Below are positions 2,308 to 45,889 of a DNA stretch of 64,000 bases, one piece after another. Origin of the DNA: Thermoplasmatota archaeon (GTDB lineage Archaea > Thermoplasmatota > Poseidoniia > Poseidoniales > Thalassarchaeaceae); contig JAURCP010000006.1 of the NCBI GenBank assembly GCA_030828405.1, positions 12,015-76,014 of the forward strand, in the 5' to 3' direction. The notes beneath the pieces are model-generated. The model saw only the letters and a program-made list of their open reading frames with translations, was not told where the DNA came from and ran no database searches. A program made the position numbers and the translations under genes. Numbering within the stretch: the first letter of the stretch is position 1; each line of letters opens with the position of its first letter.

Positions 2308-3468
2308 GTGATTCTGAAGTGTATGCATCCGGAACAACTACGCAGGGTTATACTAAGGATTGTAACATCTCTTATGAATCTCATAATTGGCCCTTCAGGT
2401 GCTTGGTATGCTCTTGGATTAGAAGGTCTGTGCTTGTACATTATCGTTAATGTATTTACTAAATCTGTAGTTGCAGAGATTTCGGCTCTAAACGAAAAGA
2501 TATCTAGATTGGGATATAGAATATCTCCTATCTTTCTGATTTCTGCAGGTTTCTTGCCACTTATCTCATCCAACTGGTATACTTTTGTGATTCTTATACC
2601 TATTCTATTGGCAACATATGTGGGATTATTTTGGACAGGCTTTCATGGAATTAGAAAACTAAGAACTTTAAAAACTGAAAGAGAATCAGTAAGATCCTTT
2701 CAACATTATGAAATTGTAAGTACTTTATTGGCTGCTTTTTTAGTTTTATTTCTTAAACAAGTTGAGATGGTAAGTTATGCTGGATATATAGGCTCGATTC
2801 TAGCTTTCATTGCATTGGTAATTCCAATGAAAATAGGTGAAGGGACAATCAGAATATCAAGTGGCGATATGTTAAATCAAGAAGTAATACTTGCAAGATT
2901 AACCACAGGTTCTTTCGGAATCATTGGTTTTTCGACAGTTTGGTGTATGAGGATAATTGCTTTGGAATACGCAGGAATTTCAGGGATTGCGGGGATGGTG
3001 GCTCTTTCCAGTTTAGGAGGACATATTATATCTAATTTGAATGATAAAAAACTGAGGCCAGAATCGGCTGATAATAAAAACTGGATATGGGGGACTAACA
3101 TAGTAATAACTGGTATTCTTATTATGATTGGAAGTTTAATTTTAAGGCTTGAAGAATTTTTCCTAACTGGTTATCTGATTACAAGAGGGGGCACGTCTGG
3201 TATTTTACATCCTTTAGAAGTAAGAATTTCTGGAGAATTATTAATCGGAGATGGAGGTGAAATTGGGCTAAGAGAGAGAATAAAATTCAGAACACAAACA
3301 AAAATTATGTTTTTTTATATTATCTGCAATTATATGTTGTACAATATAATTGGAGAAATTAATCTTATTTTATTAGTCTTATTGCCTTTGATAACATCAT
3401 TATATTGTTGTAAGTTAAATTTGGAGATTATTGATTACTTAAAGACTCACCAACGGGTGCAAGGTTGA
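2308..3468 (+). CDS. Polytopic integral membrane protein (hypothetical)
   Basis: 386 aa with many predicted TM helices. No recognisable catalytic motif. Confidence 0.5.
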   Translation: MILKCMHPEQLRRVILRIVTSLMNLIIGPSGAWYALGLEGLCLYIIVNVFTKSVVAEISALNEKISRLGYRISPIFLISAGFLPLISSNWYTFVILIPILLATYVGLFWTGFHGIRKLRTLKTERESVRSFQHYEIVSTLLAAFLVLFLKQVEMVSYAGYIGSILAFIALVIPMKIGEGTIRISSGDMLNQEVILARLTTGSFGIIGFSTVWCMRIIALEYAGISGIAGMVALSSLGGHIISNLNDKKLRPESADNKNWIWGTNIVITGILIMIGSLILRLEEFFLTGYLITRGGTSGILHPLEVRISGELLIGDGGEIGLRERIKFRTQTKIMFFYIICNYMLYNIIGEINLILLVLLPLITSLYCCKLNLEIIDYLKTHQRVQG

Positions 3469-5251
3469 GTTTAGATTTAGATAATTCCAATTTAATTTTA
3501 TTTTTTCTAGAATAAAGAAATAAACTCTGAGATTTAGGTTTATTTAATCCAGTAAATTCGCCAAACATTTCTCCTACTAGATGTAACTTAATTTTGTTAT
3601 TCTTACCCAATTCTTCAATATCTAAAATCCAACTAAATATCAAACTTCGAAAAATATTATCGTTACTTTTTGGATTCTCAAGAGCGGTATCTATCGAGAG
3701 TTCGGCTCTTAAAAGAAAATTATCAATCTCTGATAGGAATATTTTCATTTCTCCTAAAATTTCTTTAGATAATTCGTTTTCTAATTCAGAGCGATCTTCT
3801 GTCCAGATACTAGATCTGAATGTTGTATTCTGATAATTTTCTTTCCAGTTCTTATTTGTTATCCTTGAATCACTTAAGAATGAATTAATCTTCATGAAAA
3901 GTTGTGCTATTATTACTGATATATTGATTATTCCTGTGTAATTATTCTTACTTTCTTGAATATTTAACGCTGATTTAGCGAATCTTATTTCTTTTAATAC
4001 ACTCTCAATTATACTGCTAGTTTCATTTCGAACTATAGATTCCCTGAAACCTGAATCTTTAGGAGATGAACGATTGAAATCCAATCTGACAACTTTCATT
4101 GTTGTAGTTTTACAATAGAAATTTGTAAGATTCTTTGCTTCTGAACCAATGGTTGTAGATAAAAACGATTTAATAATCAGCCTCTTTTCTTCTTTTTTAT
4201 CTGTTTTTATCCTGTTTGAGGGGTTATTTTGATGTTCCAATAACACATCGAGACAATTCAGAATATATCCAGATTTCTTTTCTGATGACTCAAGATTTTT
4301 TCTTTCTTTCATTTCCATGTTTTCAAAATATTTATTTAAATCAGGATTTAGTGTCTTTCTAAAATCCCTAATTTTCTCTTCTATTTCATGTACTGGTTGA
4401 AGCCTAATTTTCTTATTTTTCCTCAATACCCATAATGACCACCAATAGTAGGCCTTGGCCCATACAGAATCATCTTCACGACATAATTCATCCATTTTTT
4501 TAATATAAGAAAATATATTCTTATAATCAGTTTCCCAATTATTACCAGATGGAATTAACCTTCTATTATTAGTCAAGTGGTATTGCATTAAAATTAACAT
4601 ATCAAGATGCTCAGTTTTTGTAGCACTATTATTGCGTATAGCTTTAAACCCATTTTTACTTTTCAAATTATCAAACTTAAACCAAGCAGCATCTAAAATT
4701 TTGTCAATTAATTCAAGAACTTCGGGGTTCTCAGAAAAACCCACACGAATTCTTCTGACCTGTTGTATTTTCGCTACAATCAGATATGTTGCGCAAATAT
4801 CTTTTGTTTCAACACCGTGTAATTTTTGTGTAATTTTCGATCTGAAATAATAACTATTGATTAAATCCTGTAAAGAATCTCTAGTGTAAGGATCATCTAT
4901 TTGCTGAAACCATTCATTCAAACATGGCCTTAATAATTTGTAACTACCCTCTGGATGGATTAAGTTATGTGATTGACCTATTAATCCCGATATATCACGT
5001 CTATTCCTTGAAGTGAAATTTATTATCAGCATTGAATCCTCAACACCGAAGTAATCTACCATGATTTTAAAGCTCTCTAAGGCTGATAATTTTGTTTTAG
5101 GTTCAGTGGTTAAATCTGAAAATGATTTATTATATTGCTCTGCAGCCTTAGCCCAATAAAGAATTAAATCTTTACTAAATTTATCTCTTTTCTCATTGTT
5201 AGAATAATGGAGATTACAGAAATCTTCACAACTTAACCTCTTGGACACCAT
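3428..5251 (-). CDS. Large hypothetical protein (607 aa, Lys/Asn-rich), flanks the accessory island
   Basis: Long intact ORF with very AT-rich codon usage and no motif I recognise. Confidence 0.5.
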   Translation of the reverse strand: MVSKRLSCEDFCNLHYSNNEKRDKFSKDLILYWAKAAEQYNKSFSDLTTEPKTKLSALESFKIMVDYFGVEDSMLIINFTSRNRRDISGLIGQSHNLIHPEGSYKLLRPCLNEWFQQIDDPYTRDSLQDLINSYYFRSKITQKLHGVETKDICATYLIVAKIQQVRRIRVGFSENPEVLELIDKILDAAWFKFDNLKSKNGFKAIRNNSATKTEHLDMLILMQYHLTNNRRLIPSGNNWETDYKNIFSYIKKMDELCREDDSVWAKAYYWWSLWVLRKNKKIRLQPVHEIEEKIRDFRKTLNPDLNKYFENMEMKERKNLESSEKKSGYILNCLDVLLEHQNNPSNRIKTDKKEEKRLIIKSFLSTTIGSEAKNLTNFYCKTTTMKVVRLDFNRSSPKDSGFRESIVRNETSSIIESVLKEIRFAKSALNIQESKNNYTGIINISVIIAQLFMKINSFLSDSRITNKNWKENYQNTTFRSSIWTEDRSELENELSKEILGEMKIFLSEIDNFLLRAELSIDTALENPKSNDNIFRSLIFSWILDIEELGKNNKIKLHLVGEMFGEFTGLNKPKSQSLFLYSRKNKIKLELSKSKLNLAPVGESLSNQ

Positions 5252-5584
5252 AGCTGTACGTAATAATTAATACTTATAAATGTTAATATTTATCACCTCA
5301 AATTGAATAAAAATATAAAAAAGATTAATAATAAATAGTTATTTTTAGGCGATAAATATGCCATTTGAGAAATAATTGTTTAAAGTTGTTTTTATAAAAT
5401 TGAATAATATAAAAAATCATTGGGCATATATAGGGCCGTACCGTATTATAGTATGTAGTGCACCCCGGCATTCGTTTCACAAAAATGTGGGGGGAAGGGC
5501 AGAAACTGCTTCACCACTCCCATGAGTGGAGATGGAGTAGTTTATGACGCCAAATTGGTGAAAGAAAAAGGATAACGTAAAACT

Positions 5585-5614
5585 CTAGAGGGTGTAAGAA
5601 ATGACCACCTCTAG
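5585..5614 (+). promoter_or_regulatory. Imperfect hairpin (ctagaggg-tg ... cacctctag) upstream of first small-peptide gene
   Basis: Inverted repeat read directly from the sequence, about 45 nt upstream of an AAGGAG Shine-Dalgarno. Confidence 0.4.
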
Positions 5615-5659
5615 TTTCAATATGAATAATAAATTATAAAAAAAAAGGAGATAATGAAT

Positions 5660-5746
5660 ATGGGATTTCTAAAATGGCTTTTACTCGGATCAGGTGCTGC
5701 TTACTTTGAACACACAGTAAGCGGTGACGATGACGATGATTGTTAA
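5660..5746 (+). CDS. Small hydrophobic peptide 1 (28 aa, MGFLKWLLLGSGAAYFEHTVSGDDDDDC)
   Basis: AAGGAG SD sits 9 nt upstream of the ATG. N-terminal MGF/LL motif is shared with two downstream paralogs. Below the 60-aa track threshold. Confidence 0.5.
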   Translation: MGFLKWLLLGSGAAYFEHTVSGDDDDDC

Positions 5747-5799
5747 CGTAAAAATAAATAAAAAATGACTTTCTAAATGAATAGGAATTTAGAGTTCGC

Positions 5800-5816
5800 A
5801 TCTCGGACACAGAGAT
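5800..5816 (+). promoter_or_regulatory. Conserved hairpin atctc-ggacaca-gagat upstream of peptide 2
   Basis: 5-bp stem with a 7-nt loop. The paralogous copy upstream of peptide 3 (gcctc-gggtaca-gaggc) keeps pairing through compensatory changes. Confidence 0.45.
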
Positions 5817-5840
5817 AAAAATACAAGGAGTGTGATAAAA

Positions 5841-5963
5841 ATGGGTTTGTTTAGAGCATTGTTCTGGACGGGAGCTACAATAGCGACTGGAGGATTGGCG
5901 CTTGCTTTGCTTCCAAACGACTGGGACGGTATAGACGGATATGACGGTGGCTGTGACGAATAA
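5841..5963 (+). CDS. Small hydrophobic peptide 2 (40 aa, MGLFRALFWTGATIATGGLALALLPNDWDGIDGYDGGCDE)
   Basis: ACAAGGAGTGTGATA SD context nearly identical to peptide 3. TM-like N-terminus, acidic C-terminus with Cys. Confidence 0.55.
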   Translation: MGLFRALFWTGATIATGGLALALLPNDWDGIDGYDGGCDE

Positions 5964-6026
5964 TCGCCACATACACTGTTTCGCAAATGCGATGACTTGC
6001 AGGATGAATATGGATCTTGCCCCCGT

Positions 6027-6043
6027 GCCTCGGGTACAGAGGC
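6027..6043 (+). promoter_or_regulatory. Conserved hairpin gcctc-gggtaca-gaggc upstream of peptide 3
   Basis: Same position and shape as the 5800-5816 hairpin, with compensatory base changes. Confidence 0.45.
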
Positions 6044-6069
6044 GACACAAACAAGGAGCGTGATATGTT

Positions 6070-6186
6070 ATGGGATTGCTAAAAGCAATCGTAGGCGGAA
6101 CTGTTGGTTTGGTCGTGGGCACAATGACTTGTGCACCAATCACTGGAATGATTGGTGGTGCATTTGTAGCTCAAGACTGGGAATAG
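6070..6186 (+). CDS. Small hydrophobic peptide 3 (38 aa, MGLLKAIVGGTVGLVVGTMTCAPITGMIGGAFVAQDWE)
   Basis: ACAAGGAGCGTGATA SD 11 nt upstream. Gly-rich TM helix, acidic C-terminus. Confidence 0.55.
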   Translation: MGLLKAIVGGTVGLVVGTMTCAPITGMIGGAFVAQDWE

Positions 6187-6281
6187 TTCAATGATTACAT
6201 GTGTAAATGTTGGCATGATAATGACATTTGAGAAGGTGCAAGACCTGGAAAAAAATATGAAGAAGGAAAGGAGGTAACGTA

Positions 6282-6491
6282 ATGGGAAACATAACGACAA
6301 AAGTCGAAATTGCTGACCATACGGGGCACACCACCGCTTTATTGACTCAGAGAGAGACTGTTGATCTCGTATCTGACAATGAGCGTTGGGTTTTCGCTGG
6401 AGGACAAATGATTGAGCCAGAAGAATTGGCTGAAGCAGATTGGTCTACAGTTGGAACCGTGAGAGTGATGCCGCGTATTGTGTTCGGTTGA
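6282..6491 (+). CDS. 69-aa protein, possible ThiS/MoaD-like beta-grasp (ends ...MPRIVFG)
   Basis: AGGAGGT SD. Length and the C-terminal pattern (hydrophobic-x-hydrophobic-FG) resemble sulfur-carrier/Ubl proteins. Higher GC than surrounding genes. Confidence 0.45.
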   Translation: MGNITTKVEIADHTGHTTALLTQRETVDLVSDNERWVFAGGQMIEPEELAEADWSTVGTVRVMPRIVFG

Positions 6492-6583
6492 TTGGCTGAT
6501 TATTTGCTCGAAAGAGCCCGGATTAACGTAAGTCAAGATAGGGTATACTCTATGTTGATGCAAAATAAAAAGGAGAAAATAAA

Positions 6584-7087
6584 ATGGAAACAAAACAAAT
6601 AAATAATGAAAAAATAATAGAAAATGAAATAGATTGGAAACAACACATACGAGATGTGCATAATGATATGGCAGATGATATAGAATATCTCTTCCCTAAC
6701 AATTCCACTGAAGCCTTTATGACAGCAATATGGAAAATGTCTGTTGACTTATTAGAAAGGATAGAAGTGATGGTCATCGTCGATAATAAAGATGATTTGT
6801 ATATCAGTAGCGGCACACCATCGTTAGTCTCGTTCAAAGATCATGAGGATGAATTAAAAATTGGAGATAAAATGAAGTTGCCACTGAAATGTTGCATCCA
6901 TACACACCCTTCAGGTAAAGCATACTTTAGCGATACTGATTGGAATACAATTAACACATGGAAGAGCGATATTGAATCATGCATTGTACTAGGTAAAAAT
7001 GAATATTTAGCATATAATCCTAAATCTAAATTAGCTAAAATGGTTCACTATGGGCTTCTTGAGAACAATTTGAGAGGTGAGCAATAA
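6584..7087 (+). CDS. JAB/JAMM (MPN+) metallopeptidase domain protein
   Basis: Canonical JAMM motif HTHPSGKAYFSDTD (HxHx7Sx2D). AAAGGAG SD. First gene of the coupled operon. Confidence 0.75.
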   Translation: METKQINNEKIIENEIDWKQHIRDVHNDMADDIEYLFPNNSTEAFMTAIWKMSVDLLERIEVMVIVDNKDDLYISSGTPSLVSFKDHEDELKIGDKMKLPLKCCIHTHPSGKAYFSDTDWNTINTWKSDIESCIVLGKNEYLAYNPKSKLAKMVHYGLLENNLRGEQ

Positions 7088-7311
7088 TGATTGAGGATTT
7101 AGTTATGAAAGATGATATTAGAATGATTATTGAATTAATAGAAGATAAGGGGTATGATTTAGATGAGGAAACAATTTCCTCATTAACAAAATATATTGAA
7201 ACAAATTTATCTTCATTGTGCAGAATCAATGAAATTTTAACTGGTATTACTGCTTACAAGAATCTTATCAAACAGGAAGAAGAAAAAATCGAAAGTTTAG
7301 GTGGTGTTTAA
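7087..7311 (+). CDS. 74-aa protein ending in LGGV; candidate conjugation tag or adaptor
   Basis: Start overlaps the JAB stop (TAATG). C-terminal diglycine followed by one residue. Predicted largely helical, so the fold is uncertain. Confidence 0.5.
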   Translation: MIEDLVMKDDIRMIIELIEDKGYDLDEETISSLTKYIETNLSSLCRINEILTGITAYKNLIKQEEEKIESLGGV

Positions 7312-8076
7312 ATGGATATTAACGAAGAAGAATATACGCCAGAGAGAAAGAATGGAATTTTCAGATTTAGTATTCCTAATTTAGATGCACACAATAAATC
7401 ACTTGAATGGATTGAGTCTGAGAGGAAAAGAATGGGGGCGGAAATTGATTGTATGTTAGAGGATGGATACGACTCAAGTAGGAAATGTCATATTTATGTC
7501 AATGGGAGAGAGTCTGGAATTAATTATAGATTGACATTATCTTTTGAATCTAAAATTGCAAATCTATTATCTAAAAGAATTAATGAAGTTGAATTGAGTG
7601 ATAGAAATCTAAAATCAATTTTATTCACATTTCAAAAATTGATTCATTTCGAAACACATTGGTATGATCATTCGGAAGGGCGCTGGCAGCATATTTGCTT
7701 AGATGTGAAACCTTCTGTTAATCATCCATTTTGGCCAGGAGACCATATTGTTTCTGTAATGAATTGTTTGTCTGAAGACATGACTTCAGTACTTGATAGA
7801 GATATGAAAACTTTAAGAAAAGCAATGACTAAAGCACTTGTAGTCAGTTGGTTCCAAGGCGATAATTCAGATATTATGGGATTTAATAAGGTAAGTCAAT
7901 ATGTAGAGTGGTTAATTCAATTAGAAGAAACAGATAGTGAATTTTCATTTGCAAATAAGAGAGATTTGATTTTAAAAAATATAAAAAATGATTGGGGATA
8001 TTGGGTAGAATCACAAAAAACAAAGCAAATGAAGTTATATGAAAACGTGTTTTCTAGTTTGGAGGAATATCAATGA
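7312..8076 (+). CDS. E2 (UBC)-like protein
   Basis: NHPFWPGDHIVSVMNCL resembles the UBC HPN...C(L) active-site region. It starts immediately after the stop of the upstream gene, and GGTGGTG acts as an SD. Confidence 0.45.
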   Translation: MDINEEEYTPERKNGIFRFSIPNLDAHNKSLEWIESERKRMGAEIDCMLEDGYDSSRKCHIYVNGRESGINYRLTLSFESKIANLLSKRINEVELSDRNLKSILFTFQKLIHFETHWYDHSEGRWQHICLDVKPSVNHPFWPGDHIVSVMNCLSEDMTSVLDRDMKTLRKAMTKALVVSWFQGDNSDIMGFNKVSQYVEWLIQLEETDSEFSFANKRDLILKNIKNDWGYWVESQKTKQMKLYENVFSSLEEYQ

Positions 8077-8744
8077 AAGATGTACTGGATATAGCAATAG
8101 TTGGAGTTGGAGGGATTGGTTCGAACCTCGCATCATTAATTGTGCCATCTCTATCTCAAGGAGATTTATCACAGAGATTTTCAAAAATAAATATCAATCT
8201 ATATGATTCAGATGAAGTCGAAGAAGAAAATATATTTCATCAGAGATTTAATCAATCAAATATCGGTGAAACAAAAGTTTTGGCTACAAAGAAAAACTTA
8301 TCATCTTTTGAGCATGATAAATTAGAAATCGTCCCACATGGAAAGGATGTTCGAGAGAAAGAAGATATTGAAGATAATGACCTAATAGTGGTTTGTGTAG
8401 ATTCTTCAGATGCTAGGATAGTAGTTCATTCAACAAACTCAAAATGGTTAGATCTAAGATGTAGAGGAGATAATTTCATGAGTATAGATTATACTACAAA
8501 GAAAAATATTATCAAATCAATTACCGATATCGACCAAAAACCCGGTTCTTGTCAGTATGAGGGAGCTTTAGAATCAGGTAATATTCAATTTGGTTTCATG
8601 TACGCTGCATCCTTTGGGGCTCAATGGGTGATACAAAACCTTAGAGGAGAAAATGAAGGAAATAATGTGTTGATGCCTTATCCAAGATCAGAAAGTATAA
8701 CATTTGGGACATTAGGTAATTTTGAGAAAGAGGAGGGAAGTTAA
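8073..8744 (+). CDS. Minimal E1-like (ThiF/MoeB/UBA superfamily) adenylyltransferase
   Basis: IAIVGVGGIGSNLA Rossmann motif, DSDEVEEENIFHQRF (D-D-V-E..N..Q) adenylation motif, LIVVCVDSSDARIVV, and a PGSC cysteine. ATGA overlap with the E2-like gene. Only 223 aa and lacks CxxC zinc motifs. Confidence 0.65.
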   Translation: MKDVLDIAIVGVGGIGSNLASLIVPSLSQGDLSQRFSKININLYDSDEVEEENIFHQRFNQSNIGETKVLATKKNLSSFEHDKLEIVPHGKDVREKEDIEDNDLIVVCVDSSDARIVVHSTNSKWLDLRCRGDNFMSIDYTTKKNIIKSITDIDQKPGSCQYEGALESGNIQFGFMYAASFGAQWVIQNLRGENEGNNVLMPYPRSESITFGTLGNFEKEEGS

Positions 8745-8896
8745 TGTCTTGGATAGTTAGGTGTGCATTTTGTGATGAGAAAATTACTATTGGTAAAAAT
8801 CAGTTCAAGAAAGACAAAAATCCATTAACTGAAGAAAGTGAATATGTATGTGCTCATTGTTATCAATCTTTTATTGGCGATCTAGACTCTTATTAA
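8744..8896 (+). CDS. 50-aa zinc-ribbon protein (CAFC...CAHC), not in the ORF track
   Basis: ATG overlaps the E1-like stop (TAATG). Two CxxC pairs spaced about 26 residues apart. 3' end overlaps the convergent gene by about 26 nt. Confidence 0.45.
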   Translation: MSWIVRCAFCDEKITIGKNQFKKDKNPLTEESEYVCAHCYQSFIGDLDSY

Positions 8897-9587
8897 CGTC
8901 GAAAGTTCTCATCTGATCTACAGTCCAATTCTTGGTCCTAGGCCTCCAGAAAATAATAGTAAATACTCCAATAAATAAACCGCCGAAGATAAGATTAAGC
9001 CATCCCTCTGAAATATATCCAGGACTAGCATTAAAGCTTGCCCAAATAAATGATGGAATAATTCCAAATATTAATGAGATAATTAATTCTTCAGATAATA
9101 ACTTATATTTATCAGGTGAGATTGGTAATTTTGGTGCTGTATTCTCAAAATTATTTGAGTTTTTTCTTCGAACTACTCTAAAGAAGTCACAATTTTCTCC
9201 CTTAGGAATCAAAGAAGGATTAGGAGTTCCTGAAACCCATTTTTTTGAAACTTTCATTAACCAATTATCCTCTATAAAGGGCCTACCATCACAATATTTC
9301 GACCAATAAGAACCTCGAATTCTATCTGATAACTCCTCAACTTCATCATTCCCAGAAATCAGACCACTATCCATTGCAAGAGTCCACTCAGATTCTGAGG
9401 CTACATGGCAGTTTTCATTTCGGAGAATAGTTTTCATGGTTCCAGAATCTACTGGCAGATAAGATATTTCAAAATCATAATCAATTTTGACTTCATGCCT
9501 AGGACCGACTCCTCCAAAAAGTATTGAACGATTATCTGAACCAATGAATACTTTTCCTGGATAGACAGTTACCCATTGAATTTCCAA
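8871..9587 (-). CDS. FGE-sulfatase (SUMF1)-like domain protein with C-terminal TM anchor
   Basis: N-terminal WVTVYPGKVFIGSD and C-terminal RGSYW...GENCDFFRVVRR resemble the FGE-sulfatase fold signature. Two C-terminal hydrophobic helices. Confidence 0.4.
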   Translation of the reverse strand: MEIQWVTVYPGKVFIGSDNRSILFGGVGPRHEVKIDYDFEISYLPVDSGTMKTILRNENCHVASESEWTLAMDSGLISGNDEVEELSDRIRGSYWSKYCDGRPFIEDNWLMKVSKKWVSGTPNPSLIPKGENCDFFRVVRRKNSNNFENTAPKLPISPDKYKLLSEELIISLIFGIIPSFIWASFNASPGYISEGWLNLIFGGLFIGVFTIIFWRPRTKNWTVDQMRTFDVNKSLDRQ

Positions 9588-9598
9588 TTTTATCCCAC

Positions 9599-11500
9599 CT
9601 AGGGTTCAATTTCTCCAGTTTGTATTGACCATTGAGACGCATAAACACTTTCATTTATGAGTAGATCTTCATGCTTACCTCTTTCAACAATTGCTCCATC
9701 AACCATTGAAATTATTTCATCAGCATTTCTGATTGTAGCAAGTCTATGAGCCACTGCTATTGTAAGTCGGTTCTTTTTACCATTTGAACCACCGAAAAGT
9801 GACTGTTGTATCCTCTTCTCAGTTTCAGCATCCAGTGCAGCACTAGCTTCATCTAAAATAAGAAGGTCTGGGTCATTCAATAGAGCCCTGGCAAGGCTAA
9901 TTCGTGCTCTTTGGCCTCCAGATAACATCACTCCTCTATCGCCCACCATTGATTCTAGTCCATCAGGTAATTGAGTAATAAATTCTGACGCACCTGCCAT
10001 ATCTAGCGCATTGAATATTTCCTCATCCGTAGCATCTCTTGCATAGGAAACATTTTGCTTGATAGTCCCGTAAAAAAGGAATGGATCTTGAGAAACAAAT
10101 CCAATTTTAGATCTTACAGATTTTATGGAATAATCATTGATATCTTTTCCATTAATGAGCACTTTACCATGTTGTGGTTCATAGAATCTCTCAATTAACT
10201 TCAGTATTGTACTCTTACCTGCTCCTGTATGGCCCATTACTCCCAAGAATTCTCCAGAAGAAACCTTCAAATCTATTTTGTTAAGTACATTTGATTCAGA
10301 AGAAGGATATGAAAAAGACACATCCTCAAAGGAAATACTTTCAATTGGCTCCTCAAGTGTTAGTGCGTCCTCCTTGTCATAAATCGAAGGTTCAAGATCA
10401 ACAACAGCGAAAACTCTCCGTGAAGCAGCCTCTCCTTTCTGTAATTGATTTAGTAACATCCCTAGAATCCATAAAGGCATAGTCATTCTAGTAGATATCA
10501 GTAAGAATGTTACAAACTCGCCCACACTTATTTCACTGGAATTCATTAGCCACCCTCCAGCTGAAACTAATAGTCCGAATGAAATACCCGCTACAATATG
10601 AAACCCAGGAATAAAACGATTTCTGATGAAAGCTGCTTCTATAGCTTGGTCCCGATAATTGCCACTTTGTCCCTCAATTCTAACTCTTTCAAAATCACTG
10701 GCATTATATGCTTGAACCACAGTAATTCCAGATAATACGTTTTCTAATATTGCTACTATTCCGCCTGTACTTTCTCTTTGTTGACGATACTTTCTCTGGA
10801 CTCTGGTAGAAAACCAAATAACCATAGGAACAATCATGAATAATGGCCCAAAGAGAATCATACAAAGTGTTGGAGACATCCAGAAAAGAATAACAAATGC
10901 GGTACTAAGGGTTGTTATTATCCTGATTATACTAGTAGTTGAATCTGAAATAATATCTTCCAACTGCGCTACATCAGCAGATAGTACAGACATCAAGTTT
11001 CCAGTCTGTCGGGTTTCAAAGTATGATGCCTCCATATCCATCAAAGATTTTGTAGCATCCATCCTAATATCATGCTGAGCTTTGTAAGCTATTGACTGCC
11101 AAAGTTGATTGCTTAGACCCTGGAAAATTGCAAGAAAAACGAAGGATGAAAAGATAAGTAAACCAAAGCCAAGCTCTGTGGACTCGATTGGTCCAAGATT
11201 AGGTATTGAATCGAGTGTAACAATTTTTTCAATTCTTGAATTAGTAAATTGAGAGTTATCTGGGTTGTAGTAATCGGCTGCCATACCTATTGCAATAAAG
11301 GGGACAAGGTCGAAAATTCTAGCTCCGATATTTGCTAGAAGACCGCCTAAAGCCCTCTCCCAATATCTAGTCACATAAGGCAGAATTCTCCAAATTTTTC
11401 GGCCCACTATTTGCTTCTCTTCAACAAGGTCAGAAGCATCTTTACTGATTGAAGATACTATAACTTCCTTAGTTGGATCCTGGCTATCGGCTTTCGACAT
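9599..11500 (-). CDS. ABC exporter, fused permease + ATPase (MsbA/multidrug/peptide exporter type)
   Basis: Six-TM N-terminal domain, Walker A GHTGAGKST, ABC signature LSGGQRARISLARAL, Walker B LILDEASAALD. Confidence 0.85.
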   Translation of the reverse strand: MSKADSQDPTKEVIVSSISKDASDLVEEKQIVGRKIWRILPYVTRYWERALGGLLANIGARIFDLVPFIAIGMAADYYNPDNSQFTNSRIEKIVTLDSIPNLGPIESTELGFGLLIFSSFVFLAIFQGLSNQLWQSIAYKAQHDIRMDATKSLMDMEASYFETRQTGNLMSVLSADVAQLEDIISDSTTSIIRIITTLSTAFVILFWMSPTLCMILFGPLFMIVPMVIWFSTRVQRKYRQQRESTGGIVAILENVLSGITVVQAYNASDFERVRIEGQSGNYRDQAIEAAFIRNRFIPGFHIVAGISFGLLVSAGGWLMNSSEISVGEFVTFLLISTRMTMPLWILGMLLNQLQKGEAASRRVFAVVDLEPSIYDKEDALTLEEPIESISFEDVSFSYPSSESNVLNKIDLKVSSGEFLGVMGHTGAGKSTILKLIERFYEPQHGKVLINGKDINDYSIKSVRSKIGFVSQDPFLFYGTIKQNVSYARDATDEEIFNALDMAGASEFITQLPDGLESMVGDRGVMLSGGQRARISLARALLNDPDLLILDEASAALDAETEKRIQQSLFGGSNGKKNRLTIAVAHRLATIRNADEIISMVDGAIVERGKHEDLLINESVYASQWSIQTGEIEP

Positions 11501-11552: not shown

Positions 11553-11627
11553 TGGTGCGCCCGCCGGGATTTGAACCCGGGACATGAGGTTGGAAACCTC
11601 AGGTGATAACCCCTTCACTACAGGCGC
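11553..11627 (-). tRNA. tRNA-Gly (anticodon TCC)
   Basis: Cloverleaf folded by hand: acceptor gcgcctg/cgggcgc, anticodon loop tttccaa, T-arm ccggg-ttcaaat-cccgg, 3' CCA encoded. Confidence 0.7.
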
Positions 11628-43799: not shown

Positions 43800-45889
43800 T
43801 TACTAATTCTTTTCTCAATAGCAGACTGATGAGATAGGAGCAGCAGTAATGGAATTAGCATCAATATTGCTGATTGTAAGACAACAGAGGAATACTCTTC
43901 GAAAGTTTTCTCTAATGAATAAATGACTAAGGTTGAATCGCCATTTTCACTAATTTCAATCCATGTTACACCATTATCAAGCACATGAGGATTTTCTTGA
44001 TCTAAATCATCAAGGGTTATTTGGACACGTTCATTATTATCTTCAACATTCCAAATGAAAACATCTCTATTGAAATTTTCAGGTTCAAGATTGACGGTAG
44101 GGGAAGTGATTGGTCGCTGTAGAAAAGCGATATAATTGCCTTCGATACTAGGGGATTCTGATGGCCATAAAGGATTGGAAATCATCTCTTGATTACCGGT
44201 CAAAGCATCTACTAGTATTAAGCGATTGAGTGGACCAACATCAACTAAAACAACTACTAAATTACCTTCCATTTCGATATCTATAATTGTTGAGTTATTA
44301 TAATCAACAGGTATTTCATAGAATTGAGCGAGGTATGCGTCATTCAATTCATTTGAGAAGTTTTCAATCAATATATTAATCTCAATTCCTGGATTAAATG
44401 GCGAAGTGACATTAATAATAGGTCCGTTCACGGTATTATATGCAGAAGCGAACAATTGGCCGGCTCCTTCTATTGCGGTTAAACCTTCAATATAATTTGA
44501 GGAAAGCAATTGATTATTAATAGTATTATAAATTTCCATTGTATTGTTCTTAACTATAACTAAACAAGGTTGTCCCTGATTATTCTCAATAATAGAAACT
44601 CTGTCTAATTTATCTTCATTAATTAGACTAAATATCGGCTCAAAAACTTCAACTGAAGAGTTATTTAATTGAAAAAAATCTAATTTAAAATCGTTGAAAA
44701 GTACGAGATTATTATTTGATAATTCAATTTGAGGTGGAGAAAACCAATCATTTCCTTCAATAATCGCTGCCTTCTGAGTACTTACATTCCATAACTTGAT
44801 TGTTATTTCATCATCTATATCTTCAACTCCAACCACCCACCCTTCTGAACCCGCAGCATCGGTAGGATTAACTCCTTCAATTGGAAAATCTTGATGGGTT
44901 GCGTCCCATAATAATACACCACTGGTCAAGATTAATACTACAGCGATAAACGCTTTTGTCTGGCTAGAACTTGGCCGTTGAATGGGATGAAATAACTCCT
45001 TGATAATTACCCAAGACTCAGAAAGCCATTTCTTAGGGTCATCAATTGCACGAGCTAATCTTCTTGAAAATAATCTTTCATCAGCGAATTGCCAAATTGG
45101 CGTATGTGTTTTGGCTGTAATCTCTACTGCAATCATTGCGACAATAATCCCGCCAATTATATCAGTGACCCAATGAATACCAAGATAAAGGATTGTAAAT
45201 GCTGTTATTACAATAAATAAAAGTAGTAATTTCCTATATCTTAACCATCTTTCATCTGAGTCCCATCTTTCCATAGTTAACCATATAGCGAAGGGCAAGC
45301 CGATATGTAAACTTGGCATACCATTTGTAAACGGATCAATCTGTATGAACCAATTATGAATTTCGGGAGTTAAATCATAAGCTATTGTTTCCATTTGCGG
45401 GATATAGTTTCCAGTTACTCTAACATTAAAAAATAGATAGAACGGAATAGCTAGAATATATACCCAAAACATCGATAATGAAACTCTATCTGCCATATAT
45501 CTGTCATCAAAGAAAATTGGGTATATGAAAGAAGAGAATGTCACAGCCATGAACCCCATGACATAGAAGTGAGTTAAACCAAAAGATAGTAAAGAATTAT
45601 TCAATGAATCTTGTATCCACCAAACAATATCTCCTTCTATCGCATAAATGTAAGGAGTCATGTCAAGCTGAGTGTTGGCCATTAGAATTCTATCTAATTG
45701 ATCTAGTATATCCTTCCACAAATAAACTGAAAAAACAACTATCATATGAGCCCAATATCGTCTGAACATATCGATAAAACTGGAGATACGAATTTTAGCG
45801 TAATCTGGCTTAAAAAATGGCATTAAAGAAATACTAATTATGATTGCTCCAGTAATCCAAGTAAGGTAAATACCACTCGCCACTGCCAT
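43796..45889 (-). CDS. Polytopic membrane protein with large C-terminal extracytoplasmic repeat (beta-propeller-like) domain; hypothetical
   Basis: About 8 N-terminal TM helices, then some 380 aa of Asn/Ile-rich repeats. Confidence 0.45.
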   Translation of the reverse strand: MAVASGIYLTWITGAIIISISLMPFFKPDYAKIRISSFIDMFRRYWAHMIVVFSVYLWKDILDQLDRILMANTQLDMTPYIYAIEGDIVWWIQDSLNNSLLSFGLTHFYVMGFMAVTFSSFIYPIFFDDRYMADRVSLSMFWVYILAIPFYLFFNVRVTGNYIPQMETIAYDLTPEIHNWFIQIDPFTNGMPSLHIGLPFAIWLTMERWDSDERWLRYRKLLLLFIVITAFTILYLGIHWVTDIIGGIIVAMIAVEITAKTHTPIWQFADERLFSRRLARAIDDPKKWLSESWVIIKELFHPIQRPSSSQTKAFIAVVLILTSGVLLWDATHQDFPIEGVNPTDAAGSEGWVVGVEDIDDEITIKLWNVSTQKAAIIEGNDWFSPPQIELSNNNLVLFNDFKLDFFQLNNSSVEVFEPIFSLINEDKLDRVSIIENNQGQPCLVIVKNNTMEIYNTINNQLLSSNYIEGLTAIEGAGQLFASAYNTVNGPIINVTSPFNPGIEINILIENFSNELNDAYLAQFYEIPVDYNNSTIIDIEMEGNLVVVLVDVGPLNRLILVDALTGNQEMISNPLWPSESPSIEGNYIAFLQRPITSPTVNLEPENFNRDVFIWNVEDNNERVQITLDDLDQENPHVLDNGVTWIEISENGDSTLVIYSLEKTFEEYSSVVLQSAILMLIPLLLLLSHQSAIEKRISN

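Follow-up and report, generated by a model that had tools for sequence, protein, structure and literature searches.

A lineage-restricted zinc-ribbon-type microprotein encoded behind a minimal E1-like enzyme in a ubiquitin-like cassette of Marine Group II archaea

[quoted passage not shown] In prokaryotic ubiquitin-like (Ubl) operons of the 6c/6e types, small metal-binding proteins were predicted to function in target recognition or regulation (PMC1779556), and BubE (DUF6527) has a C4 zinc site (PMC11601596). Because the bacterial Ubl systems Bil, Bub and CBASS Cap2/Cap3 have been characterized only recently (PMC10557695, PMC11601596), an archaeal Ubl system with a variable position behind its E1 gene is a reasonable target for reconstitution. 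This work reports such a locus in a 64,000-nt stretch of DNA, hereafter the window, and our literature search found no paper in which ubiquitin-like systems are connected with Poseidoniales or Marine Group II. The Marine Group II archaea, still uncultured, rank among the most abundant archaea of the surface ocean.

The cassette and its minimal E1-like enzyme

The locus is a compact, tightly coupled Ubl modification cassette of Marine Group II archaea (Poseidoniales), in which the genes for a Ubl, a JAB peptidase, a 74-aa helical protein, a 254-aa protein with one Cys, an E1-like enzyme and a small zinc-ribbon-type protein (ZnR) follow one another in this order. The 69-aa ubiquitin-like modifier (6282..6491, plus strand) belongs to a family that in most Poseidoniales ends in PGLVGG followed by one further residue; in the present clade PRIVFG stands right before the stop codon, while tandem Ubl and Ubl-Ubl-E1 fusions are found at other loci. 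The JAB/JAMM metallopeptidase (167 aa; 6584..7087, plus strand) contains the motif HTHPSGKAYFSDTD (HxHx7Sx2D) and matches Pfam Prok-JAB at E=2.1e-5, its 24.8 bits falling just under the cut-off of 25, and the JAB adjoins the E1 or is fused to it in 80 loci. Placed directly 3′ of the JAB gene, the 74-aa predicted helical protein with the C-terminal SLGGV (7087..7311, plus strand) occurs in the close clade only (9 loci), and a helical protein of ~79 aa is found 3′ of the JAB gene in 64 other loci; homology between these two was considered and rejected, the hhalign probability being 4% and not significant.

The 254-aa protein (7312..8076, plus strand), whose stop codon and the E1 start share 4 nt, was found in 17 loci only, and its C129 and W125 are invariant, C129 lying in the motif W..ICLD. 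Searches with it gave no Pfam or NCBIfam match and no PDB sequence match at E<=10, and its AF2 model, with a pLDDT of 43.5, is unusable. An hhalign comparison with UBE2D2 placed C129 on C85 with identical spacing from F..T..Y, an alignment that is suggestive but, at a probability of 0.25%, not significant. The protein is a possible candidate for an E2-like carrier.

The penultimate gene (8073..8744, plus strand) encodes a 223-aa minimal E1-like (ThiF-family) adenylation enzyme, identified by Pfam ThiF (PF00899; 50.3 bits, cut-off 28.1) and by its AF2 model. Its GxGxxG Rossmann-type domain matching the ThiF profile and the β-grasp modifier with a C-terminal Gly encoded nearby place it in the E1 superfamily. 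Residues G11xG13G14xG16, D45, D47, N53, Q57, K68, D110, R115, C130 and C160 are invariant in the E1 alignments, and C160, located in a coil segment (151-164) where the crossover loops of E1 enzymes sit, is the candidate catalytic Cys for thioester formation. Its best matches in the defense library are Cap2-type E1-E2 models and its best NCBIfam match is PRTRC_ThiF, all far below the family cut-offs.

A structural zinc site is a common, not a universal, feature of the ThiF/MoeB/E1 superfamily. The sequence-only reading had described the window E1 as having no CxxC, and this was confirmed, as its cysteines occur only at 108, 130 and 160; the site composed of two crossover-loop Cys and two near the C-terminus is absent, and a CxxC was found in 0/120 retrieved homologs. 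The E1 modeled alone by AF2 reached a pLDDT of 92.7 and a pTM of 0.92, and Foldseek with this model returned UBA5, PaaA, Cap2, MccB and ThiF at TM 0.6-0.7, with the matches to UBA5, ThiF and Cap2 spanning the full length. The E1 by itself is thereby confidently predicted to form a complete E1 fold. The PDB profile matches cover residues 4-155 only, and the C-terminal half searched alone had no match, therefore the mapping of the canonical zinc ligands is drawn from the fold only. Longer homologs are either Ubl-Ubl-E1 proteins of 351-360 aa with an N-terminal tandem Ubl or E1-JAB fusions of ~400 aa. The E1 locus lies in a conserved neighborhood in Poseidoniaceae. The enzyme is a member of a Poseidoniales family of minimal E1-like proteins without the structural zinc site, which is large, has apparently not been described before and travels with a GG-ended Ubl and a JAB peptidase.

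The small gene behind the E1 and its variable position

The last cistron of the cassette (8744..8896, plus strand) encodes ZnR, a small zinc-ribbon-type protein of 50 aa that reads MSWIVRCAFCDEK...VCAHCYQSFIGDLDSY, with one CxxC at residues 7-10, a loop of 25 residues, a second CxxC at 36-39, an invariant K.D.NPLTEE loop and an acidic tail at the C-terminus. As the sequence-only reading stated, the ORF begins on the E1 stop codon, the ATG (8744-8746) sharing its A with the TAA (8742-8744) in TAATG; an SD-like GGAGG lies 5′ of this ATG at 8732-8736, and an earlier in-frame start was looked for and is absent. Four variants of the junction occur among the orthologs (-1, -10, -17 and +8 nt), with the ZnR start overlapping or adjoining the E1 stop, and most of the seven orthologs have an SD-like motif 5′ of the ATG. 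The proposed translational coupling with the E1 gene is supported, as is a linkage to the E1 cassette, and the small ORF is kept with the cassette in a second genomic context: ZnR is found behind E1 in two unrelated downstream settings, one with p238 and the ABC transporter and the other with an AsnC regulator.

In seven distinct orthologs, with identities down to 56%, 25 of the 50 positions are invariant, the four cysteines (C7, C10, C36 and C39) among them. One ZnR cluster (P0122) has the third Cys changed to Ser, and His38 is not conserved. The pN/pS was 0.057/0.745 between the window and L001, and 0.13/0.48 between the window and L085. The invariance of half the residues, with all four Cys among them, and a pN far below pS show the ZnR ORF to be a real gene; a 50/51-aa ORF was also called by gene callers on several metagenome contigs. 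It is true that ZnR, as would a chance open frame in the AT-rich DNA between convergent genes, is of small size, matches no family and turns up in few databases, but small ORFs of the CxxC-(10-40)-CxxC type number 3 in the window against a mean of 0.14 expected by chance per shuffled window, purifying selection is strong, the Cys are invariant, the start context is conserved, and the ORF is retained in two genomic contexts. A spurious frame has thus next to no probability, and is already effectively refuted by the pN/pS and the conservation.

With two Cys-x2-Cys knuckles, a loop within the range of 15-40 residues and four conserved Cys, ZnR has the composition of a zinc finger, and most likely binds one zinc ion via the four invariant cysteines, as judged from its sequence. 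All of its matches to Pfam and NCBIfam are below threshold, namely GpA_ATPase (20.1 bits, cut-off 25.6), DUF4428 and C1_4, and ECs_2282_CxxC scored 17.9 bits, under a cut-off of 37.

At its 3′ end, the small ORF overlaps the convergent ORF 8871-9587 by 26 nt, the length given by the earlier reading. This convergent gene (8871..9587, minus strand) encodes a 238-aa membrane protein, and belongs to the flanking core genome outside the cassette; the former label of FGE-like found no backing, as neither Pfam nor NCBIfam gave a match at E<=0.1. The cassette lies on a dispensable island of 6.28 kb (2502..8784), at the borders of which there is a 10-nt microhomology (2492-2501 / 8775-8784). Besides all of the cassette with the first CxxC of ZnR, the island holds a 607-aa ORF and a conserved region of small ORFs. 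The GC content is 0.27-0.33 within the island vs 0.36-0.40 outside. Three contigs from three samples (L081-L083) are island-free, with window position 2501 joined to 8775, a junction that creates the chimeric ORF P0124, and the convergent 238-aa gene is kept beside the ABC transporter in these contigs. Because this island-free haplotype exists, the whole cassette is dispensable, and therefore the selection on ZnR could be weak in some populations. Neither a tRNA nor an Rfam element was found at the island borders. A viral or mobile origin of the locus was rejected, as there was only one remote IMG/VR match and the locus is essentially absent from viral contigs.

ZnR is an orphan gene restricted to one sub-lineage. 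It was found in only 5 clusters by a word-indexed search of 5.8e9 proteins, and a full HMM scan of 1.84e9 representative proteins detected no relatives outside the clade, its only returns besides the clade being a fragment of 37 aa and a eukaryotic C2H2 protein that matched by chance; the ZnR HMM searched against all ORFs of ~100 related loci revealed nothing further. ZnR is present in 1/80 Poseidoniales genome loci, the other 79/80 having a Zn-less E1 without it. Even among the close orthologous operons about half are without ZnR, the slot being empty, decayed or occupied by an unrelated 305- or 466-aa gene, and the absence of the small ORF from orthologous loci, which the earlier reading had named as refuting its proposal, was seen at the same-order operons L002, L091/L092/L102, L090 and L100. 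In total, seven close operon variants do without it. Unrelated larger genes hold the ZnR position in three of the loci: in L098, a 305-aa gene starts on the E1 stop and has an N-terminal CxxC-14-CxxC; L097 carries a homolog of this 305-aa protein; and a 466-aa gene overlaps the E1 end in L089. An NJ tree built from the E1 places every operon with ZnR within one inner clade, in which some lineages are without ZnR or have it replaced, and the basal branches have no ZnR.

Possible roles of ZnR

The sequence-only reading took the small ORF for the zinc element of the E1 encoded as a separate gene, and an obligate subunit of this kind would bind the adenylation domain as its structural zinc element in trans. 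In its favor, the E1 has no CxxC of its own, the four Cys of ZnR are invariant, the ORF start on the E1 stop codon favors 1:1 co-synthesis, and every operon with ZnR also encodes the 254-aa candidate E2; moreover, the zinc-stapled C-terminal element of BilD is an E2-binding surface (PMC10557695), so that a trans-acting substitute is conceivable. However, the E1 family with its 0/120 CxxC works without ZnR in 79/80 loci and in the seven close operon variants, and the E1 alone is predicted to be a complete fold. A ribbon accompanying the Zn-less E1 wherever it occurs, or fused to it, was not what we found, as only 1/80 genome loci and roughly one in two of the close operons contain the ribbon; the fusion to the E1 C-terminus that the earlier reading looked to in orthologs, like any other zinc-ribbon fusion, was absent among the 120 retrieved homologs. 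Nor does the small ORF supply "exactly" the canonical element, because the canonical ligands come from two distant parts of one chain, the crossover loop and the C-terminus, and not from a self-contained 50-aa ribbon with pairs spaced by 25 residues. The E1 differences tied to ZnR are Y203, where other E1s have F/Q, and the tail starting at E220, this residue lying within the ZnR ribosome-binding site, and no E1 residue co-varies with ZnR presence except the codon forming this ribosome-binding site. We therefore consider a split E1 very unlikely, and take the attractive reading of an E1 broken into two genes to be most probably wrong.

Based on these findings, we propose, with a confidence somewhat above even, that ZnR is a genuine, lineage-specific and dispensable accessory or adaptor microprotein of an E1 that is complete without it. 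First, the E1 family would have dispensed with the structural zinc site, each enzyme being complete on its own. ZnR would then be a young, lineage-restricted, dispensable accessory of the Ubl cassette, probably synthesized in concert with the E1; its slot behind the E1 is variable, and in sister operons there is either nothing there or one of the other, larger Cys-knuckle proteins. By its position and by precedent, it may act as a protein-protein adaptor or regulator, which could have its docking site on either the E1 or the 254-aa protein, or could use the conserved K.D.NPLTEE loop and the acidic tail to present a partner, and it would not be a structural part of the adenylation domain. An adaptor, which together with a target protein was the fallback of the earlier note, is thus the preferred reading of our analysis, and the importance of ZnR hinges on its being a specificity or E2-recruiting factor.

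The other half of that fallback makes ZnR a dedicated substrate or carrier, with the Ubl conjugated to one of the invariant Lys of ZnR, which would then be a built-in target or signaling intermediate. Three invariant lysines (K13, K18 and K22) are indeed part of the exposed loop that joins the knuckles, and gene order predicts co-expression with the conjugation machinery, but conserved Lys are common in zinc ribbons, the operons without ZnR keep the same Ubl, E1 and 254-aa protein, and the evidence fits an adaptor equally well; we regard this role as unlikely.

A further alternative concerns descent: the larger proteins headed by a Zn ribbon in the L097 and L098 slots could have given rise to ZnR by reduction, or could have grown out of it, ZnR being kept as a mini-protein with partial function. 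The L098 protein also starts on the E1 stop, its SCESCDE...ENYVCRGC resembles RCAFCDE...SEYVCAHC of ZnR, and the L097/L098/L089 branch is sister to a ZnR-bearing branch in the E1 NJ tree. Against this, the ZnR HMM misses the L097 and L098 proteins even at E<50, the DNA similarity amounts to an 11-nt match only, and the loops measure 14 vs 25 residues. Homology of ZnR with the N-terminal ribbon of L098/L097 is unsupported at the protein or DNA level, and such a descent is, in our estimate, quite unlikely.

The position behind the E1 might also be an exchangeable "specificity slot", where ZnR and the larger proteins headed by a zinc knuckle, of 305 aa (L098/L097) and 466 aa (L089), would bind to the E1 or to the 254-aa candidate E2 and direct or gate the Ubl transfer. 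We hold this to be speculative and rather unlikely. If true, the slot proteins would represent a primitive modular E3-like or E2-recruiting element of an archaeal Ubl cassette, and would take over in trans the function of the C-terminal, zinc-stapled element by which canonical E1s bind E2.

Comparison with known systems

Like the zinc site of the MoeB/ThiF/UBA5/BilD type, ZnR has two CxxC-type Cys pairs and presumably one zinc, and it is encoded beside, and would be co-translated with, an E1-like enzyme. However, its pairs are separated by 25 residues and belong to an independent protein of 50 aa, missing in most members of the family. The cassette as a whole resembles the archaeal SAMP/UbaA/JAMM1 system and the bacterial Bil (6d) and Cap2/Cap3 systems, in which a β-grasp modifier with a C-terminal Gly, an E1-like enzyme and a JAB peptidase are likewise brought together in one locus, but its E1 has neither the zinc site nor the second (inactive) adenylation domain.

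A small Cys-rich protein beside Ubl, E1-like and JAB genes is shared with the 6c/6e operons of Iyer, Burroughs and Aravind and with the Bub operons, although here the host is archaeal and ZnR is limited to one sub-lineage. An identity with BubE/DUF6527, a family with a Ser/His dyad besides its C4 site, was rejected, as ZnR has no PF20137 match and, at 50 aa, is far below the size of a protease domain, and it lacks the C-x3-C-x35-38-H-x2-C signature of BubE. The C(P)XCG microproteins of Haloferax volcanii are, like ZnR, archaeal proteins of <=70 aa with a single predicted zinc domain and two Cys pairs (PMC6562870, PMC11241148), whereas the ZnR motifs CAFC and CAHC are without Pro/Gly, and no homology with the C(P)XCG proteins was detected by the HMM scan of the 1.84e9 representatives.

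The Ub/E1/E2/Rpn11 operon of Caldiarchaeum subterraneum with its small RING-finger protein, srfp (PMC5654768), similarly combines a modifier, an E1, an E2, for which the cassette has a possible counterpart, a JAB/Rpn11-type peptidase and a small zinc protein. However, the RING of srfp holds two zinc ions by eight ligands in a cross-brace, whereas ZnR has four Cys only; a RING or treble-clef E3 was rejected on the same count and because His38 is not conserved. In addition, the E1 of the Poseidoniales cassette is a 223-aa minimal form, and its E2 is a candidate only.

A putative zinc-ribbon gene at the end of a six-gene cassette

The window DNA is archaeal and low in GC; its genes have relatives almost only in marine metagenomes and in genomes of Candidatus Poseidoniales (Marine Group II). 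A tight unit of six plus-strand ORFs runs from the ubiquitin-like (Ubl) modifier gene orf69 (6282-6491, 69 aa) through JAB (6584-7087, 167 aa), a helical protein (7087-7311, 74 aa), p254 (7312-8076, 254 aa) and the ThiF/E1-like protein, hereafter E1 (8073-8744, 223 aa), to the small ORF ZnR (8744-8896, 50 aa), which encodes MSWIVRCAFCDEKITIGKNQFKKDKNPLTEESEYVCAHCYQSFIGDLDSY. From the JAB gene to ZnR, every start abuts or overlaps the preceding stop. The last A of the E1 TAA (8742-8744) is common to the ZnR ATG, which has GGAGG 7 nt upstream and no earlier in-frame start, and the 3′ end of ZnR shares 26 nt with the convergent 238-aa gene (8871-9587). The sequence-only reading was thus correct in all details on the CxxC-free E1, the start on the E1 stop, the CxxC pairs and the overlap; its 'FGE-like' label for the convergent gene is unsupported.

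ZnR is more than a chance ORF; it is a real gene. Small ORFs with a CxxC-(10-40)-CxxC pattern are expected only 0.14 times per shuffled window, and seven sequence-distinct orthologues were recovered (the window and the related loci L001, L085, L086, L087, L088 and L099). Their pairwise identity falls to 56%, and 25 of the 50 positions are invariant, including K13, K18, K22, the loop D.NPLTEE, CYQ.FI and all four Cys. Non-synonymous change lies far below synonymous change (pN/pS = 0.057/0.745 between the window and L001 copies, and 0.13/0.48 between those of the window and L085). The E1-ZnR junction varies (-1, -10, -17 or +8 nt), with the ZnR start always near the E1 stop and a purine-rich motif 5′ of it in most orthologues. 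Moreover, ZnR still lies behind E1 in a second genomic context of the cassette (L084, L093-L096), where a PF00940 RNA polymerase gene precedes the cassette and an AsnC regulator follows it. Therefore, given its conservation, the selection on it and its movement with E1 into a different neighbourhood, ZnR belongs to the cassette and not to the flanking genome.

The PF00940 gene encodes a 1279-aa protein with a single-subunit, phage-type RNA polymerase domain (L093 520-4359 and L094 706-4545, minus strand). It lies upstream of both the Ubl gene (by about 1.9 kb) and E1 (by about 3.6 kb), and is unusual on an archaeal contig. In the ZnR-matching cluster P0122, from a 514-nt ENA contig, the third Cys is replaced by Ser (YVSIHCYQ), either as a natural variant or through a sequencing error. 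Among the window's unannotated small ORFs, only one other shows a CxxC…CxxC pattern (45089-45220, plus strand); it encodes 43 aa with nine Cys (…CFGCNLYCNHC…CKCC…).

E1 and the question of a zinc element in trans

The sequence-only reading saw in ZnR exactly the zinc element that E1 lacks, which could be provided in trans, or else a target or adaptor protein. E1 passes the Pfam ThiF cut-off (50.3 bits against 28.1), and its Cys occur only at 108, 130 and 160, of which C130 and C160 alone are invariant. No CxxC occurs in any of the 120 retrieved E1 homologues, nor does any of them carry a fused zinc ribbon; the longer ones are Ubl-Ubl-E1 fusions of 351-360 aa or E1-JAB fusions of ~400 aa. Modelled alone, E1 is predicted with high confidence to be a complete adenylation domain (pLDDT 92.7, pTM 0.92) with full-length fold matches to UBA5, PaaA, Cap2, MccB and ThiF (TM 0.6-0.7). 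In zinc-bearing E1s, the crossover loop supplies one pair of ligands and a stretch near the C-terminus of the same chain supplies the other, as with Cys340/343 and Cys491/493 of BilD (PMC10557695) and likewise in UBA5 (PMC2888440). ZnR, as a putative self-contained ribbon with a 25-residue spacing, is not that element.

The distribution of ZnR points the same way. It occurs in one of the 80 Poseidoniales genome loci encoding this E1 family (L001), a profile search of every ORF of about 100 loci gave no further copy, and even among operons that match the window's in gene order, with E1s 68-82% identical, about half do without it. Orthologous loci without the small ORF are the very outcome that the sequence-only reading had named as refuting it. 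No E1 position co-varies with ZnR presence beyond a conservative Y/F change and one tail codon, the latter being part of the ZnR ribosome-binding site. Therefore, the split-E1 interpretation is not supported. It is conceivable, though unsupported, that ZnR stands in, in trans, for the zinc-stapled E2-binding surface of canonical E1s; it may also be an adaptor or target, the fallback of the sequence-only reading.

A Ubl/E1/JAB family and a dispensable island

The broader Poseidoniales Ubl/E1/JAB family, for which the literature searched gave no description, is the more interesting by-product. The orf69 family ends in PGLVGG plus one extra residue in 46 loci, while members from the window's clade have PRIVFG directly before the stop. 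Tandem copies (L059, L062) and fusions in front of E1 (L057, L060, L071) also exist, and the E1 family is also found next to poly-Ubl genes. JAB (motif HxHx7Sx2D) adjoins or is fused to E1 in 80 loci (fusions in L006, L010, L022, L025, L028, L030, L032 and others), and a ~79-aa helical protein follows JAB in 64 loci; the 74-aa protein of the window holds the same position, with no demonstrable homology. Present in only 17 loci, p254 has a single invariant Cys in W..ICLD and no PDB or Pfam match. Its FETHWYDH..GRWQHICLD aligns at identical spacing with the UBE2D2 E2 active site FTTRIYHPN..GSICLD, placing that Cys on the catalytic Cys, an alignment without statistical support, and we hypothesize that p254 is E2-like. 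Judged from the protein families, JAB most likely trims or releases the Ubl first; E1 would then adenylate the Ubl at its C-terminal Gly, perhaps holding it on C160, and the Ubl would pass to targets directly or, in this clade, via p254. A defence role is not indicated, since the best library matches of E1 (PRTRC_ThiF and Cap2-type E1-E2 models) all fall far below cut-offs, the E1/Ubl/JAB locus of Poseidoniaceae lies in a conserved neighbourhood, and viral contigs essentially lack the family. The single-cell genome AH-273-K03 carries two versions about 20 kb apart on JAOMRN010000001.1, a window-type cassette without ZnR (L002) and a Ubl plus E1-JAB fusion type (L025).

The cassette is dispensable. 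On three contigs from three samples (L081, L082, L083), the sequence passes from window position 2501 straight to 8775 at a 10-nt microhomology (segment within 2492-8784). The 6.28 kb thereby removed hold a 607-aa ORF, a conserved region of small ORFs, the cassette as a whole and the first ZnR CxxC; what is left is P0124, a 79-aa in-frame chimera of the N-terminus of the membrane ORF 2308-3468 and the C-terminal half of ZnR. GC is lower in this island than in its flanks, which hold typical archaeal housekeeping genes in the same synteny as L097 (GCA_028413505.1), namely a TFIIS/RpoM-type zinc-ribbon protein (29-277) and PCNA (374-1126), both named from Pfam-annotated syntenic genes in L097, and tRNA-Gly(TCC) (11553-11627). 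Upstream of the Ubl gene, 5480-6280 has no long ORF and no Rfam match, with ~80% DNA conservation in close loci; its plus-strand ORF 5832-5963 encodes a hydrophobic, Gly-rich 43-aa peptide (MIKMGLFRALFWTGATIATGG...; 43-100% protein identity). A homologous stretch lies between Ubl and JAB in L091, L099 and L102, with several 30-44-aa genes called.

A variable slot behind E1

In a neighbour-joining tree of close E1s, ZnR is missing from the basal branches and present in most of an inner clade, apart from one replacement (L089/L097/L098) and one loss (L090/L100, both without ZnR). Only ~10-40 nt separate E1 from the convergent gene in L091, L092 and L102, which also lack it. L002 has a Cys-free 22-codon ORF at 5647-5715, MFWKFIKALFTIEPNDFEDSDL; its opening codons can be aligned with those of ZnR (ATGTTTTGGAAGTTTA versus ATGTCTTGGATAGTTA), and it may be a decayed ZnR. 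In the place of ZnR, and likewise coupled to the E1 stop, are an unrelated 466-aa Cys-containing gene in L089 (2800-4200) and a 305-aa gene in L098 (3675-4592) and L097 (about 8675-9632), neither protein with a Pfam match. The 305-aa protein has a CxxC-14-CxxC ribbon at its N-terminus and CPSCG at its C-terminus, together with a coiled coil rich in Lys and Glu and a helical domain; its local motifs CxxCDE and YVCxxC resemble ZnR, and no method applied supported homology.

ZnR has relatives only within its clade, with five clusters among 5.8 billion proteins and nothing more among 1.84 billion representatives. Given this and its absence from the basal E1 branches, we read ZnR as an accessory microprotein that is young, specific to its lineage and placed in a variable slot behind E1; by analogy, it could serve as an adaptor or regulator. 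Small metal-binding proteins of the bacterial Ubl operons 6c/6e are predicted to act in target recognition (PMC1779556), BubE carries a C4 site (PMC11601596), and archaea hold many one-domain zinc-finger microproteins (PMC6562870, PMC11241148). ZnR fits both themes, the small zinc proteins of prokaryotic Ubl operons and the zinc microproteins of archaea.
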